From Spirulina sp. (GTDB lineage: Bacteria > Cyanobacteriota > Cyanobacteriia > Phormidesmidales > Phormidesmidaceae), in assembly GCA_044070495.1 (NCBI GenBank), contig JBIPSI010000004.1, positions 96,001-160,000 on the forward strand: DNA of 64,000 nt, given 5' to 3'. The position numbers and the translations under genes are program-made. Positions within the stretch are counted from its first letter, which is position 1, and every line of letters starts with the position of its first letter. Shown here in pieces: positions 3,499 to 26,111 of this stretch. Under the pieces are notes generated by a model. That model was not told where the DNA came from, did no database searches, and saw only the letters and a list, made by a program, of their open reading frames with translations.

Positions 3499-4440
<942 letters not shown>

Positions 4441-18018: not shown

Positions 18019-18399
18019 ATGGATATGACTTCCGTATCCCACAACCCAACAGCTATTATTCGTACCGAACGAGGATTGTCAATTTCTGGGACACGCATCA
18101 CCCTATACGATGTGATGGACTACCTGATAGCCCAATATCCACCACAGTTTATTCGTTCCCTGTTCGACTTAACAGAGGATCAGATGACTGCGGCTTTAGC
18201 CTACATTGAGGCAAATCGCGCTGAAGTTGATGCAGAATATCAATCCGTTCTGACCCAAGCGGAGGAAAGCCGACGCTATTGGGAAGATCGAAGTCGTGAG
18301 CACCTAGCCCGTGCTGCCAACATACATCCTAATCCGGATCAAGCCGCGCTTTGGGCGAAACTTCAGGCTCAAAAAGCTAGGCATGGGATTGATGCATGA
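18019..18399 (+). CDS. DUF433 family putative antitoxin
   Basis: GLSISGTRITLYDVMDY...AALAYI; ATGA overlap with next gene. Confidence 0.8.
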   Translation: MDMTSVSHNPTAIIRTERGLSISGTRITLYDVMDYLIAQYPPQFIRSLFDLTEDQMTAALAYIEANRAEVDAEYQSVLTQAEESRRYWEDRSREHLARAANIHPNPDQAALWAKLQAQKARHGIDA

Positions 18400-18791
18400 A
18401 CTTTTTGATTGATCACAACTTGGGAGGACATGCTGAGTTGCTATTGGGTAATATTGCGAGTCAAGGTTGGCTAGAACTAATTCCAATTCGCTTTGTTACT
18501 TTTCAAGAAATTGGTTTGCCGATTGATAGTAGCGATCAAAGAGTCTGGCAATTCGCCCAGTTAAATCAGATGATTTTGCTAACGGCAAACCGAAGCATGA
18601 AAGGAGAAGATTCGCTGGAGAAAGTGCTTCGGGAAGAAAATACTCTGAATTCCTTTCCTGTCGTTACCATTGGAGATGCCAATCGTTTTTTGGCCGACCG
18701 CGTCTACCGAAACCGTTGCGCTGACCGTATCCTCGAAATCCTGTTAGAGATTGAAAACTGGATGGGTGTTGGTCGTCTTTTTGTTCCGTAA
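18396..18791 (+). CDS. DUF5615 / PIN-like putative toxin
   Basis: MNFLIDHNL, SSDQRVW, ILLTAN; coupled to DUF433. Confidence 0.75.
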   Translation: MNFLIDHNLGGHAELLLGNIASQGWLELIPIRFVTFQEIGLPIDSSDQRVWQFAQLNQMILLTANRSMKGEDSLEKVLREENTLNSFPVVTIGDANRFLADRVYRNRCADRILEILLEIENWMGVGRLFVP

Positions 18792-18807: not shown

Positions 18808-19665
18808 ATGCCATCCTCCTTCCTCACCCTTCAGAGCCAACACGCCTGCTTTGGCGGCACCGTGGGCTACTACAGCCACTTTTCTAGCCAGTGCCAGTGC
18901 GAAATGCGGTTTGCGGTCTTCATTCCGCCCCAGGCCCAGGCTGGCCCGGTACCCGTGTTGTATTACCTATCGGGGCTAACCTGCACCGAGGAAAACTTTA
19001 CCGCCAAGGCCGGAGCCCAGCGCTATGCGGCGGAGCAAGGGCTGATGCTGGTGGCCCCCGATACCAGCCCCCGTGGGGAGGAAATCCCCGACGAAGCCGA
19101 TGCCTGGGACTTTGGCACCGGGGCCGGGTTCTACGTCAACGCAACCCAAGCCCCCTGGAGCCAGCACTACCGCATGTATAGCTACGTGGTGGAGGAACTG
19201 CCGGAACTGATCGCCGCCAACTTTGCCATAAAACCGGATCGCCAGGGGATTTTTGGCCATTCCATGGGCGGGCACGGAGCCTTAGTCTGTGGTCTGCGGA
19301 ATCCCCAGTTGTTTAAGTCGATTTCGGCCTTTGCCCCCATCGCCGCCCCCAGCCAATGCCCCTGGGGGCAAAAAGCTTTTAGCGGATACCTCGGCCCCGA
19401 TCAAACCCTGTGGCATGGCTACGATGCCAGCCACCTAGTGAAAACCCAACCCCAGCCCGACCGGATGATCCTGATTGACCAGGGCAACGCCGATCCTTTT
19501 TTGGGCCAGGGCCAACTCTTGCCGGAGGTGTTTGAAGCGACCTGCAAGGAAGCAGGACAACCCCTAACCCTGCGAATGCAACCGGGCTACGACCACGGCT
19601 ACTACTTCATTGCCACCTTCATGGCCGACCATATTCGCCACCACGGGGCCATCCTTACGACCTAG
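18808..19665 (+). CDS. fghA: S-formylglutathione hydrolase
   Basis: [21 protein letters not shown]. Confidence 0.95.
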
Positions 19666-19803
19666 GACATTGCGCCCCTGCTTGCCCGCCCCATCCCCAA
19701 TCCTGCCCCATCGATGCTGGAAGTTAGGTGCAGCGATAGTCGCTACGGTGCCGTGGTAGCGGCATGAGGCGCGGGCCATGACCGATTTGGCGGTGCCGCG
19801 TCG

Positions 19804-20264
19804 TTCATGGACGATCCCCAGCATCAGGATGTTGAAATGAACCGAGCCAAACGACCCATTCGTGCGGTCGAGACTCAATGTCCAGGGTTGAGGTATCTGG
19901 CTCCAACTCACCATCGTCCGGGCAATATCATCAAAATCCACCGGAAACTCCCGCAAAAACCGGGTCAGACGCTTGTGGCTCGACTCTGGTTTTGCCCGAT
20001 TGGCAAACACCGACGACAGCTTATCCAGGTTCACCGTCTCCACCCGGAATAGGGCCACCAGAAACAGGGCTAGAAACGTCAGACGGGCACCATGCCACGG
20101 CAGATGAGGGCGCAGGGCCGCTTGAAGTCGGTTAATCTGAGTCATGGAGAGGGTCTAGCTAAGGTTGTGCTAATCTCTAGCTCACCTCCCTCTTCCTCAG
20201 TCTGTCAACCCCTCCACAGGGAAGGCTTTCAGCCCCTCACCCCAAGTTTTGTCCCTGTACCGTG
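19804..20264 (-). mobile_element. Truncated IS4-family element: one end plus the first ~114 aa of the transposase (start 20145)
   Basis: LRPHLPWHGARLTFL...LSLDRT...NILMLGIVH resembles cyanobacterial IS4 transposase N-termini, then similarity ends; likely terminus GGTACAGGGACAAAA near 20247-20264. Confidence 0.8.
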
Positions 20265-20379
20265 GCCCACACCTGGGGTGCCCCCTGAACTGCCGCTTCT
20301 TTAGCAACACACCGTGAGTCATGTAGATGAGCGTAATCATTTGTAGGGTTTGTCAGCTTGATCTCGTCACAATCAGGTA

Positions 20380-20408
20380 TTGACATCTAGATTTTTGTAC
20401 ACTAACTT
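20380..20408 (+). promoter_or_regulatory. Sigma70-type promoter of the RNA-NYN-RNase III locus
   Basis: TTGACA (20380-20385), 17-bp spacer, TAACTT (20403-20408). Confidence 0.65.
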
Positions 20409-20414
20409 TATACC

Positions 20415-20660
20415 AAGCTCTACATTAAAGCGCTAGCGCTTCTGGCCAGCTAGGTTTACAAAGCTGCCGCTTCCAAAATTTGCAGGTAAAGCTGTACAGG
20501 GTGGATGCGACAACTTTGTAAGGTTAGCTGAATCGAAAAATAACTAAAAATTCTGTAGTTAAGTCTACGGAAATTTTAGCTATTCTTCAGTTCAGCCACA
20601 TCATCAGCCGCAAGAAACGCTACAGAAGACGTAGAGCCCGTACTTTATTGGAGGCTCTAA
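20415..20660 (+). ncRNA. Candidate structured RNA/leader with nested stems (no known family recognised)
   Basis: Stems 20417-23/20631-37, 20434-46/20610-22, 20456-75/20502-21, 20527-58/20565-96. Confidence 0.55.
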
Positions 20661-20661
20661 C

Positions 20662-21138
20662 ATGAGTGCTCAAGTTGTTTCAATTCACCGCAATTGTCCT
20701 ACGGTAGCGGTAGCTGTTGATGGCCAAAATGTTGGCCTTTTGAAAAATGGTGAGGCTATTTTGAGGTTTGCATCAGGTTTGGGTAATGTTTCTATTCAAT
20801 GGGCTTACTACAATTATCGAAACCTGAAGCCTCGCCATGAAGCCCGACTACAGGAGCAGGAGTGGCAATGTGTAGATGTGGCAGTTTGTACGAAAAACGA
20901 ACTGGATCATCGAATGATGACGGCGGTGAGAAAGTTGTGTTCCTGTCAACCACCTAATATTTTGGTGATCGTCACCAATGACAAAGACTTTGCTCCCCTC
21001 ATTGAGTATGCCTGTAGTCAGGGAATCAAGGTCTTTGTCATTGGTCGGCGTAATGGGATGAGCAAGGATCTCAAGCGTCTTCTCCCCAATGGCATCGTTT
21101 ATATTGAAGACCTGAAACAACTGCCTTTAGCGAGTTAA
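20662..21138 (+). CDS. NYN-domain (LabA/DUF88, PIN-fold) ribonuclease
   Basis: VAVDGQNV, KNELD, IVTNDKDFAPL, GIKVFVIG; GGAGG RBS. Confidence 0.88.
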   Translation: MSAQVVSIHRNCPTVAVAVDGQNVGLLKNGEAILRFASGLGNVSIQWAYYNYRNLKPRHEARLQEQEWQCVDVAVCTKNELDHRMMTAVRKLCSCQPPNILVIVTNDKDFAPLIEYACSQGIKVFVIGRRNGMSKDLKRLLPNGIVYIEDLKQLPLAS

Positions 21139-21235
21139 CGCGACTTTAGAATGGTCTGACTTTGCCCTTGAGAGCTTCTACAAAATAGACTTCATCAAGG
21201 GTAAAGTCTTTCCAAAGCCCTGTTTAGTATTGATC

Positions 21236-22099
21236 ATGAGAATTCCTGACTTCAAAAATAAAGAACTGCTTCAACAAGCACTGACTCATAGCTCCTATGC
21301 TAGGGAAAATGTCACGACTGACAACGAGCGTCTAGAATTTCTCGGTGACAGTATTATTGAGTTTGTAGTACGTTTTTTGCTTTTTACCCAATATCCAAAG
21401 ATGGATGAGGGCGAAATGTCGAAACGCTCTGATTTAATCGTCGATCAATCTCAATTAGCCGACCTTTCAGTAAAGCTAGGTTTGCCAAATCGTCTGCGAT
21501 TGGGAAGTGGCTCCCAGCAGGAACGTGATAACCCTAGCGTCCAGGCTGACGCCTTTGAAGCCCTGATTGGAGCCTATTTTTTAGATTCTGGCATTAATGC
21601 TGCTTACGATTATGCCAAATCCTTATTTAGCCCATTAATTGCTCAATCTATCAATCTCACGCCTACCGATCCAGTCAGTGCTTTTCAAGAGTATGTACAA
21701 GCTCACTTTGCTGGTCAGCTTCCCGACTATCGAGAGCTTAGCGCTATTGGTCCAGATCATGCCAAAACCTTTGAGATTGCGGTTTATATCAATCATGAGC
21801 GTTACGGTACAGGCAAGGGCAATAGTAAGAAAGAAGCACGAAAGCAAGCGGCCTTGGATGCACTCAATCACCTTCAACCCGATCCCGTAAGCAAATTACA
21901 GGAGTTGGTACTGACTCGTTTTGGCGAACCACCCGAATATCGAGAACTCAGTACGGTAGGTTCCGTACCTAATCAAACATTTGAAATTGGGGTGTATATC
22001 AACCACCAATGCTACGGTGTTGGTAAAGGAAAACGTAAAAGGGAAGCCCGCAAGCAAGCCGCATTAGAAGCAATCAGTCGATTAAAGGCTAAAAAGTAG
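21236..22099 (+). CDS. rnc: Ribonuclease III with two tandem dsRBDs
   Basis: ALTHSSY, NERLEFLGDS, ADAFEALIGA; two dsRBDs DPVS..QE...G.G..K.EARKQAAL. Confidence 0.92.
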   Translation: MRIPDFKNKELLQQALTHSSYARENVTTDNERLEFLGDSIIEFVVRFLLFTQYPKMDEGEMSKRSDLIVDQSQLADLSVKLGLPNRLRLGSGSQQERDNPSVQADAFEALIGAYFLDSGINAAYDYAKSLFSPLIAQSINLTPTDPVSAFQEYVQAHFAGQLPDYRELSAIGPDHAKTFEIAVYINHERYGTGKGNSKKEARKQAALDALNHLQPDPVSKLQELVLTRFGEPPEYRELSTVGSVPNQTFEIGVYINHQCYGVGKGKRKREARKQAALEAISRLKAKK

Positions 22100-24583: not shown

Positions 24584-24767
24584 GGTGCTTGGTAGAAAAT
24601 AGGTCTATGGGTGGCTCTGCCTAGGATATACCGCGCCCCTAGCGGATTTCCAGGACAGCAGCTTCCTATGGCTTTGCTAAACCATAGCCTCCAGCCACAA
24701 AAAATGCAGAACTGATGAGCCATTCTGGGTAGTCTAGAGCGAGGTGATGCTTGCAGGCTCAACGGCG

Positions 24768-26111
24768 ATGGCAAATCAAGAACAGGTCGCTTTGCTAAAG
24801 CAGGGAATTAAGGTTTGGAATGCCTGGAGGGATGGAAATCCTGACGTTGAGATAGATCTTAGATTCGCCGACCTAACCGCCGTCGGCCTAATCGCCGCCA
24901 AACTCAGCTACGCCGACCTCAGCTACGCCGACCTCAGCTACGCCAAACTCAGCTACGCTAACCTCAGCGAGGCCGACCTCAGCTACGCCGACCTCAGCTA
25001 CGCCGACCTCAGCTACGCTAACCTCAGTGAGGCCGACCTCAGCTACGCCAAACTCAGATCCGCCAACCTCAGCGAGGCCAACCTCAGCGAGGCCAACCTC
25101 AGCAAGGCCAACCTCAGCGAGGCCGACCTCAGCGAGGCCAACCTCAGCGAGGCCGACCTCAGCTACGCCGACCTCAATGCGTCTCAGGTACTTGGTGCTA
25201 ATTTTACCCAGGCAACACTCACAGGAGCCTGTATAGCCGACTGGCAAATCGGCATCTCAACCATCCTTAAAGATGTCCAATGTGACTATATTTTTCGCAC
25301 CTACAACTATGAGAGTCAACAATTCTCAGGTCGTCTTCCTATGGATCCTGAAAACCCCTTTGCCCTAGATGAATTTAGTCAACGATTTCAAATTATTGCC
25401 AGTGCCCTAGAAACTATCGACATCACCTTCACCGAGGGTATCGACTGGCAAGCCTTTTTCCAGTCTTTCCAGGAATTACGGCAGCGTTATCCCCAACATA
25501 ATATTGGCATTCAAGGCATTGAGGAGAAGGATGGAGCCTTGATAGTGCGCTTGAAAGTAGAAACAGAAGAGACAGGCGCAGCGCTAGAGGAGCTTAAAGG
25601 CCGGATCGAAACCACCGAGAAGCAGTTATATTCAGTTCAACTCTCATTGCGGGAAGCAGAAGGGCAACTGAAGGTGTACCGAGAGATGATGGGAGTAGTT
25701 CAGACGTTAGTGTTAAGACCTATGGGTGACCAAAATTTCTATGCTCCAGTTGGCAATGTGGCGGGTACCAACCAAGGGCAAATGACAGCCTACATCAACC
25801 AAAATAATGAGGCTATCAGCCAACTCATCGCCACACTTCGGTCTACTGTTCAGGCTTTTCCATCCGAGCAAAAAGACGATGTGTTGATGGAGCTAGACGA
25901 CCTAGAAAGCGACCTCAGCAAGACAGAGAAGCCAGAACCAAAGCGCATCGGTAAGCGACTTCAAAGAATCTTGGCCGCAGGAACTGCCGCTGCCACCCTA
26001 GCAGGAGGTGCCGCTACCTTTACAGGCGATCTCAACGAATTCACCCAAAACGTGCTGGAGTTGGGAGAAAAAATTGGTCTAGATCGAGGTTCGATCCAAG
26101 GCAACCCATAA
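24768..26111 (+). CDS. Pentapeptide repeat protein with C-terminal coiled-coil region
   Basis: A(D/N/K)LS(Y/E) repeats encoded by 15-bp units ~24860-25180; start MANQEQ. Confidence 0.9.
   Translation: MANQEQVALLKQGIKVWNAWRDGNPDVEIDLRFADLTAVGLIAAKLSYADLSYADLSYAKLSYANLSEADLSYADLSYADLSYANLSEADLSYAKLRSANLSEANLSEANLSKANLSEADLSEANLSEADLSYADLNASQVLGANFTQATLTGACIADWQIGISTILKDVQCDYIFRTYNYESQQFSGRLPMDPENPFALDEFSQRFQIIASALETIDITFTEGIDWQAFFQSFQELRQRYPQHNIGIQGIEEKDGALIVRLKVETEETGAALEELKGRIETTEKQLYSVQLSLREAEGQLKVYREMMGVVQTLVLRPMGDQNFYAPVGNVAGTNQGQMTAYINQNNEAISQLIATLRSTVQAFPSEQKDDVLMELDDLESDLSKTEKPEPKRIGKRLQRILAAGTAAATLAGGAATFTGDLNEFTQNVLELGEKIGLDRGSIQGNP

Follow-up and report, generated by a model that had tools for sequence, protein, structure and literature searches.

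What is the structured stretch of DNA in front of a putative NYN-domain nuclease gene, and does it control that gene? This question is raised by a 64,000-nt stretch of a Spirulina sp. contig, referred to here as the window. In it, a 516-nt intergenic gap separates an IS4-family transposase remnant from the gene for the NYN protein, and the structured stretch lies within this gap. The coordinates of all features are collected in Table 1. A gene for RNase III (rnc) follows and starts 92 nt past the NYN stop codon. A terminator scan of 19900-21300 predicted no terminator between the two genes, and NYN and rnc are probably co-transcribed. Beyond this locus, the genome contains two RNase III-like genes, one of full length and another that is mini-III-like, and three more NYN genes.

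Several properties of the neighboring genes were recorded. As a rule, bacterial RNase III carries one dsRNA-binding domain. The RNase III in the window (289 aa) has two such domains in tandem, each matched by Pfam dsrm. Among the relatives, this duplicated form was confined to the closest ones (L021, L022, and L023), and one dsrm domain was matched in the more distant NYN-linked RNase III of L024, L025, L026, L029, and L031. With the PADLOC defense-system models, RNase III gave no match and NYN gave one weak partial match of 22.7 bits. The open frame of the IS4 remnant extends into the 3' end of an esterase gene on the opposite strand (18808-19665). Further upstream, two small overlapping genes, DUF433 and DUF5615, lie at 18019-18791 (+) in a toxin-antitoxin-like arrangement. 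Downstream, the translation of 24744-26111 (+) has a long run of ADLSY/ANLSE five-residue repeats and resembles a pentapeptide-repeat protein.

The best explanation for the region is a 5' untranslated leader of about 245 nt belonging to a + strand mRNA for the NYN nuclease and, in the majority of genomes, an RNase III. The spacing of a putative sigma-70-type promoter would place the transcription start just before the first stem, P1. The -10 element at 20403-08 was missed by the promoter scan because TAACTT fits TATAAT at only 3/6 positions. A leader peptide was also looked for, and there is no + strand open reading frame of 20 aa or longer in 20400-20661. The original prediction, made from the sequence of this one copy, described four nested stems and an alternative pairing over the ribosome binding site (RBS), and these were borne out by the sequence or by its minimum free energy (MFE) fold. 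P1 is paired at 7/7 positions and P2 at 11/13. The core of P3 (20456-75/20502-21) is paired at 17/20 positions, with two C.A mismatches and one T.T mismatch, and the predicted TGCAG/CTGTA inner stem is present. P3 also has an inner hairpin at 20482-20497. When P3 is extended to arms of 29 nt (20447-75 and 20502-30), the arms are 79% complementary. The lower part of this stem has the conserved arms CTAGG...TACAnAGC and GCTnTGTA...CTAG plus a G.U-rich patch. P4 is present in the MFE fold as a long hairpin with a 6-nt loop, and its base, GCTGAA/TTCAGC, is a competitor of the P3 base. The alternative pairing joins AGAGCC (20633-38) to GGCTCT (20653-58) and covers the GGAGG RBS.

Two repeats overlap these elements. 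The 14-bp palindrome that had been pointed out is present in the window, but alignment showed that it is not kept in relatives and, therefore, it is probably incidental. An 18-nt direct repeat, 20405-20422 and 20642-20659, is 78% identical, which is explained by the likeness between the sequences that compete for the P1 3' strand (..GCTCTA of the 5' end and ..GGCTCTA of the RBS).

Table 1. Features of the NYN-rnc locus and its leader. Positions are those of the window; the last row concerns loci in distant cyanobacteria.
Feature	Coordinates	Strand	Basis or remark
IS4-family transposase remnant	19564-20145	-	NCBIfam NF033591, 48 bits; match covers the N-terminal ~80 residues only
Putative sigma-70-type promoter: -35 TTGACA (20380-85), 17-nt spacer, -10 TAACTT (20403-08)	20380-20408	+	Sequence reading; layout shared with relatives
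Putative transcription start, just before the P1 5' strand	20415-20416	+	Promoter spacing
P1 5' strand, GCTCTAC	20417-20423	+	Pairs with GTAGAGC, 20631-20637
14-bp palindrome AAGCGCTAGCGCTT; overlaps the P2 5' strand	20428-20441	.	Sequence
P2 5' strand, TAGCGCTTCTGGC	20434-20446	+	11/13 paired with GCAAGAAACGCTA; mismatches C.A and G.A
P3 long hairpin	20447-20530	+	MFE fold; inverted repeat
P4 long hairpin, 6-nt loop at 20559-64	20530-20596	+	MFE fold
P2 3' strand, GCAAGAAACGCTA	20610-20622	+	Sequence
P1 3' strand, GTAGAGC(C) (switch strand GTAGAGCC)	20631-20638	+	Pairs with the 5' end or the RBS region
Shine-Dalgarno GGAGG (20650-54), overlapping GGCTCTA (20653-59; 3' arm of the RBS-hiding hairpin)	20650-20659	+	Sequence; RNAalifold
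NYN-domain (PIN-like) putative ribonuclease gene, 158 aa	20662-21138	+	Pfam PF01936, E 8.1e-14; ATG at 20662
RNase III gene (rnc), 289 aa	21230-22099	+	Pfam Ribonuclease_3 and two dsrm; TIGR02191, 246 bits
Second-type leaders upstream of NYN (L034, L036, L037, L048, L080, L083, L084, L085, L090, L091)			

The original prediction called for both strands to be folded against shuffled controls, and each strand folds far better than its shuffles. The + strand reaches -80.4 kcal/mol compared to -59.96 +/- 4.4 for the shuffles (z -4.65), and the - strand reaches -97.6 kcal/mol compared to -60.49 +/- 4.64 (z -8.0). None of the 200 shuffles was as good in either case. It had also been proposed that a dispersed repeat would speak against a regulatory role. 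By BLAST against its own 5.3-Mb genome, the leader has no further copy and matches only the locus itself; the nine remaining matches are 15-32 nt long with E values of at least 0.19. A covariance model of P3 likewise found the locus as its sole match in this genome. A dispersed repeat or MITE is, thus, ruled out by the single copy. In other genera, three DNA matches of 25-42 nt were seen (G116, G146, and G010).

Orthologues of the NYN gene were found in 13/173 family genomes, including the window's own, which represent 4/19 genera and 7/52 genomes of the genus. The search at the 'order' level covered the identical 173 genomes. Upstream of the orthologues there is a shared promoter layout, consisting of TTGACA or TTGACG, a 17-nt spacer, and a -10 element of the form TAnnnT (TAACTT, TAGCTT, TAATCT, TACCTT, TACTTT, TATACT, or TATAGT). 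In these relatives, the -10 element is followed after 6-7 nt by AAGCTC-like bases, which are the 5' strand of P1. The position of the leader relative to both the + strand promoter and the ATG is fixed in all relatives.

The nested architecture is also conserved. The leaders were trimmed just past the P1 3' strand before MFE folding, and all 10 full-length orthologous leaders fold into P1, with P2, enclosing two long hairpins, so the arrangement described from the window copy recurs in every one of them. Across these 10 leaders, the outer stem of P1 plus the variable P2 has 7-29 pairs, P3 is 79-131 nt long, and P4 is 47-72 nt long; most leaders have 29-34 pairs in P3 and 20-28 in P4. A scan of metagenomes added a single locus, L100, on a contig whose NYN is 70% identical and whose P1 is GCTCTAC/GTGGAGC, with a + strand G-U pair. 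Among 151 family genomes, the P3 covariance model gave one match outside its training set, in G076. This leader lies at a contig end and appears to abut a contig with a truncated NYN gene.

Whole-leader alignments were of little use for measuring covariation. MAFFT misaligned the variable hairpins when all 11 leaders were used, and RNAalifold on the five closest leaders lost P1 and P2 because one row was truncated at its 5' end. For this reason, the stems were analyzed one by one. P1 covaries across clades. Each P1 5' strand pairs with its own partner at a mean of -12.9 kcal/mol, compared to a cross-clade mean of -6.7 (sd 2.7), and only 2/74 cross-clade pairs attain the self mean. At least five sequence variants of P1 were found: GCTCTAC/GTAGAGC, GCCCTAC/GTAGGGT, GCTCGG/CCGAGC, GCTCTGATG/CATCAGAGC, and GCCTAGC/GCTGGGC. 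The lower stem of P3 was aligned from 10 sequences over 23 pairs. In this alignment, 87.7% of the cells are paired, and 12/23 pairs have changed on both sides. Its covariation score was equaled by 0/500 shuffles, and slid controls pair at 24-40%.

Comparison, thus, backs P1 and the lower part of P3 as they had been drawn in the original prediction. P4 was also drawn correctly as a long hairpin, and it is kept as a shape rather than a sequence. A hairpin of 16-28 pairs is present at this position in 10/10 leaders (z -3.5 to -11.1), and the median pairwise identity over 45 pairs is 53%, which should be near the level for unrelated sequences under lenient scoring. The outcome was mixed for P2. 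Its 11/13 pairing in the window copy stands, but comparative support is weak: self pairing has a mean of -11.9 compared to -8.85 for cross pairing, and 21/88 cross pairs match the self mean.

The 3' strand of P1 has a second possible partner. A hairpin between this strand and a GGCTC-type sequence in the RBS or start region, which had been proposed for the window copy, is predicted in 9/11 leaders, and RNAalifold, run on the five closest leaders, selects the RBS-hiding hairpin. In L025, L026, L027, and L117, this hairpin is absent or lies elsewhere; in L025, the partner of the shared strand lies at or just past the start codon. To compare the two conformers, pairing of the shared strand was constrained to its upstream or its downstream side. 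The energies obtained for the P1 form and the RBS-hiding form agree within +/-3.3 kcal/mol in 7/10 leaders, and the energy gap in the window copy is 0.0. In L023, the shared strand has changed to GTAGGGTC and the 5' strand compensates as GCCCTAC. The RBS strand of this leader is still GGCTCTAC, and its pairing is kept through two G-U pairs. Therefore, both pairings are maintained in L023, and on the + strand. A switch of this design needs two mutually exclusive helices that are both kept, one of them over the RBS, and this is what is seen in the covariation of P1, in the hairpin of 9/11 leaders, and in L023. The leader is apparently a translational RNA switch, supported by this comparison.

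Such a switch could in principle respond to a ligand or to temperature. The leader would then be a riboswitch or an RNA thermometer in which such a signal tips the balance from one of the two helices, P1 and the RBS hairpin, to the other. The near-isoenergetic conformers in 7/10 leaders would suit a sensor of this kind, as would the three-way junction and the conserved internal-loop patch of P3. We regard this explanation as highly improbable since the conserved nucleotides lie inside a regular stem and not in junction loops of the ligand-pocket type. The long perfect hairpins would also be superfluous in a sensor, and no Rfam riboswitch matched.

The next question is which strand is functional. 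The original prediction warned that an antisense RNA would fold at least as well, citing six A-C mismatches that become G-U pairs on the - strand. The mismatches are there, with 6 A.C and 2 G.U counted in the window copy when G-U pairs are disallowed. The warning itself is correct for the window copy (-97.6 versus -80.4 kcal/mol), but it is not borne out by the relatives. The + strand has the better z-score in 7/12 leaders and the - strand in 5/12. A strand-neutral count was made by folding without G-U pairs and then classing the symmetric mismatches. In the long stems over the family, this count is a tie of 35 G.U and 35 A.C. A single transition yields either an A.C or a G.U, and the equal counts fit weak selection on the single pairs of long duplexes.

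Equal counts are also what the neutral decay of a palindrome would give. The region could accordingly be a palindrome at the DNA level or what is left of a mobile element, with no RNA function, and there is an IS4-family remnant 270 nt upstream. This reading is hardly credible since the element is single-copy, occupies the same site before NYN in 13 genomes of four genera, and has undergone compensatory changes. The IS fragment also lies outside the conserved block.

Another possible explanation is a functional RNA of about 230 nt on the - strand, running from ~20660 to ~20425. It could be antisense or independent, would overlap the leader of NYN, and may trigger its co-degradation by RNase III. 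The better fold of this strand in the window copy (z -8.0 compared to -4.65) would favor it, along with the 6 A.C versus 2 G.U of that copy and the tied family count. A weak terminator-like site was also found on this strand at 20450-20432, but it is inside the non-conserved palindrome, and no conserved - strand promoter was seen among the leaders. The G-U pairs found on the + strand in P1 of L024, L027, and L100 and in the RBS hairpin of L023 would become A.C mismatches on the - strand. The same is true of the G.U-rich patch of P3, which is kept in columns 7-9 with 13 G.U versus 2 A.C. The P3 covariance model favors the + strand, with 70.4 bits compared to 54.5 bits for the - strand. In all relatives, moreover, the element is fixed in position with respect to both the ATG and the + strand promoter, and, taken together, these observations make a functional - strand RNA very unlikely. 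The element is, with good probability, real and conserved and belongs to the sense strand; we consider it very likely to be a functional cis-acting leader of that strand.

How might a sense-strand leader of this kind work? Transcription would begin near 20415, at the 5' strand of P1, from the + strand promoter. P1, with the weaker P2, would close a junction that bears the nearly double-stranded P3 and P4. During transcription P1 would form first, leaving the RBS free, and the intact leader would be translated. A duplex-specific nuclease, most likely RNase III (the enzyme encoded downstream or a paralogue), would then cut P3 or P4 and separate the P1 5' strand from the message. The freed P1 3' strand could fold onto the GGCTCTA sequence at the RBS, which would lower the translation of NYN and rnc. 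The outcome would be negative feedback on the operon. This full mechanism, in which cleavage triggers closure of the RBS and feeds back on NYN-rnc, is a model that we think stands an even chance of being right.

The association with RNase III fits part of this model. An autoregulatory RNase III leader is expected to lie in the 5' UTR of an rnc-encoding transcript and to have duplexes of about two helical turns or more. The duplexes are long enough (29-34 pairs in P3 and 20-28 in P4), and the leader here precedes rnc, which lies directly downstream of NYN in 9/13 family loci. However, the transcript would not encode rnc in L028, L030, and L032, where the leader comes before NYN and is followed by a convergent gene instead of rnc. 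The genomes of these three have RNase III genes elsewhere, with 38-45% identity, and no leader was present upstream of those genes in the three examined. The leader is kept there without an adjacent rnc and, therefore, goes with NYN. RNase III, if it is the effector, would have to act in trans in these genomes.

This distribution raises the possibility that the NYN protein itself is the effector. It would bind or cut the lower stem of P3 and regulate its own synthesis, with RNase III as a passenger or helper. Eukaryotic NYN/PIN-like nucleases such as Regnase-1 (MCPIP1) cut stem-loops, including one in their own mRNA. The leader in the window is similar in that a putative nuclease of the NYN type has a structured element in its own transcript; it differs in that the Regnase-1 system belongs to eukaryotes, acts on a stem-loop in the 3' UTR, and works without RNase III. 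An NYN effector would account for the retention of the leader with a solitary NYN in L028, L030, and L032, where the RNase III genes elsewhere lack one. The sequence conservation of the lower P3 stem (CTAGG..TACAnAGC) exceeds what a generic dsRNA substrate needs, and the G.U-rich patch (G.U 13 versus A.C 2 in columns 7-9) is kept as well. On the other hand, the variable P4 and the hairpins of about 90 bp in distant loci, described below, resemble generic dsRNA, the classic substrate of RNase III, and rnc is adjacent in most loci. We, therefore, think it rather unlikely that NYN is the effector.

The hairpins could also be precursors of stable, trans-acting small RNAs that are cut out by the nucleases of the operon, with control of NYN being secondary. 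Two hairpins with 25-34 bp next to a pair of nucleases, and an RNase III with two dsRNA-binding domains, could be read in this way. With Rfam 15, a search of 19500-21500 (E <= 1) matched only microRNA-precursor models, at 19.8-29 bits compared to gathering thresholds of 80-200. These weak matches are microRNA-precursor-like and reflect shape alone, and they score far under threshold (29 bits versus 100). In a second Rfam 15 search of 16 related loci (58,468 bases, E <= 0.01), no leader had a match. A guide made from P4 would have no conserved target since the sequence of P4 is unconserved, and no extra copy or target-like match was found in the genome. These observations make a small-RNA precursor improbable.

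A further speculation about cleavage by RNase III is that NYN is a harmful effector, curbed by continual cutting of its leader, in a guard-type defense or a stress switch. If so, whenever RNase III is swamped or blocked, as by a surge of foreign dsRNA in phage infection, leaders would remain intact, P1 would persist, the RBS would not be covered, and NYN would be made. The long hairpins would then gauge the dsRNA-processing capacity of the cell. The guard reading fits the patchy, accessory-like distribution of the module (13/173 in the family and 7/52 in the genus), its place beside an IS remnant, and the persistence of the leader with NYN alone. Excerpts of PMC3531473 describe how RNase III of B. 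subtilis silences prophage toxin mRNAs. The parallel is that RNase III would curb a potentially harmful gene by cutting dsRNA here as well, but the duplexes in the window's leader are intramolecular whereas those in B. subtilis are formed by sense and antisense between two RNAs (PMC3531473). We consider the guard reading a long shot.

How does the proposed switch compare to known systems? Cyanobacteria have two or three RNase III paralogues. To our knowledge, the specific roles and the regulation of these paralogues are largely unknown. In E. coli, the leader of the rnc operon is the Rfam family rncO. Unlike rncO, to which there is no sequence or structure match with Rfam 15, the leader described here has NYN as its first gene and carries two hairpins within a closing P1. 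It also differs from the E. coli rnc leader in that its proposed output is occlusion of the RBS, not loss of a stabilizing 5' hairpin, and in that it persists without an adjacent rnc. In the phage lambda N leader and the T7 early mRNAs, processing by RNase III opens the RBS and activates translation. As in those phage RNAs, a cut in a long hairpin would alter the accessibility of a downstream RBS, but the geometry of the leader here predicts that cleavage closes it.

According to excerpts of PMC5829567, the RNase III enzymes of E. coli, S. aureus, and S. coelicolor are each autoregulated through cleavage of their own 5' UTR. The E. coli rnc, S. aureus rnc, and S. coelicolor absB leaders have in common with ours a long 5' UTR stem-loop in an rnc operon, and the feedback that we propose would likewise act through cleavage by the encoded enzyme (PMC5829567). 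The pnp leader, in which a cut by RNase III is followed by autocontrol by PNPase, also puts a ribonuclease gene under a double-stranded leader (cited in PMC5829567); compared by description, it has another downstream enzyme and another logic of degradation. In Synechococcus PCC 7002, autoregulation of RNase III was not observed by the authors of the work excerpted from PMC5829567. The excerpts of a review on cyanobacterial RNA decay (PMC10989914) do not mention such autoregulation. A study of RNA structures in 202 cyanobacterial genomes (PMC12873609) does not name NYN, rnc, or ribonuclease III in its main text; its supplement may list the element. No description of an NYN-rnc leader was found in the full-text literature searched. 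We take the new aspects to be the NYN partner and the design of the switch, which sets this leader apart from other leaders of ribonuclease operons. The leader family, along with the unrelated long hairpins before NYN-rnc pairs in other cyanobacteria (described below), ties one RNase III paralogue to an NYN nuclease partner. Both are also natural RNA parts, and their output should follow the dsRNA-cleaving activity of the cell. The leader family is, in addition, a well-defined candidate for inclusion in RNA family databases.

Finally, NYN-rnc pairs were sought in more distant cyanobacteria. Among 401 genomes sampled from the class, 12 further genomes have distant NYN genes, and a contig search with the NYN alignment gave one close relative, apparently the same contig as one in the family set, and distant NYN genes among the matches listed. 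RNase III adjoins the distant NYN gene in 16/18 cyanobacterial loci, counting the class sample and the named records among the matches listed. A second type of leader, which consists of one very long hairpin (58-255 nt) bounded by GTCTCA...TGAGAC, was found in 10/17 distant upstream regions, which belong to other families of cyanobacteria (Table 1). Its stems reach about 90 bp in L083 and L090. The sense strand of this hairpin folds better in 8/10 cases, and the mismatch count is 42 G.U versus 15 A.C. By eye, several loci have a conserved GATGCTGTCC motif after the second-type hairpin, and several have an RBS-proximal hairpin, CTGTCCTG...CAGGAG, after it. No Rfam family matched the second-type leader. 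Since different hairpins stand before distant NYN-rnc pairs, a long duplex is, thus, a recurrent cyanobacterial theme built from unrelated sequences. The leader family and these unrelated distant hairpins make up a concrete and testable control element.

Three minor observations concern the arrangement of individual relatives. In L037, a c-di-AMP riboswitch (RF00379, 57.9 bits) lies at 3908-4166 (+), downstream of the NYN-rnc pair. L038 has RNase III genes at 881-1579 and 3658-4329, one on each side of NYN. In L025, an RNase III fragment (residues 3-68, 56% identity) lies upstream of the leader at 729-932, and the full gene is also present downstream.
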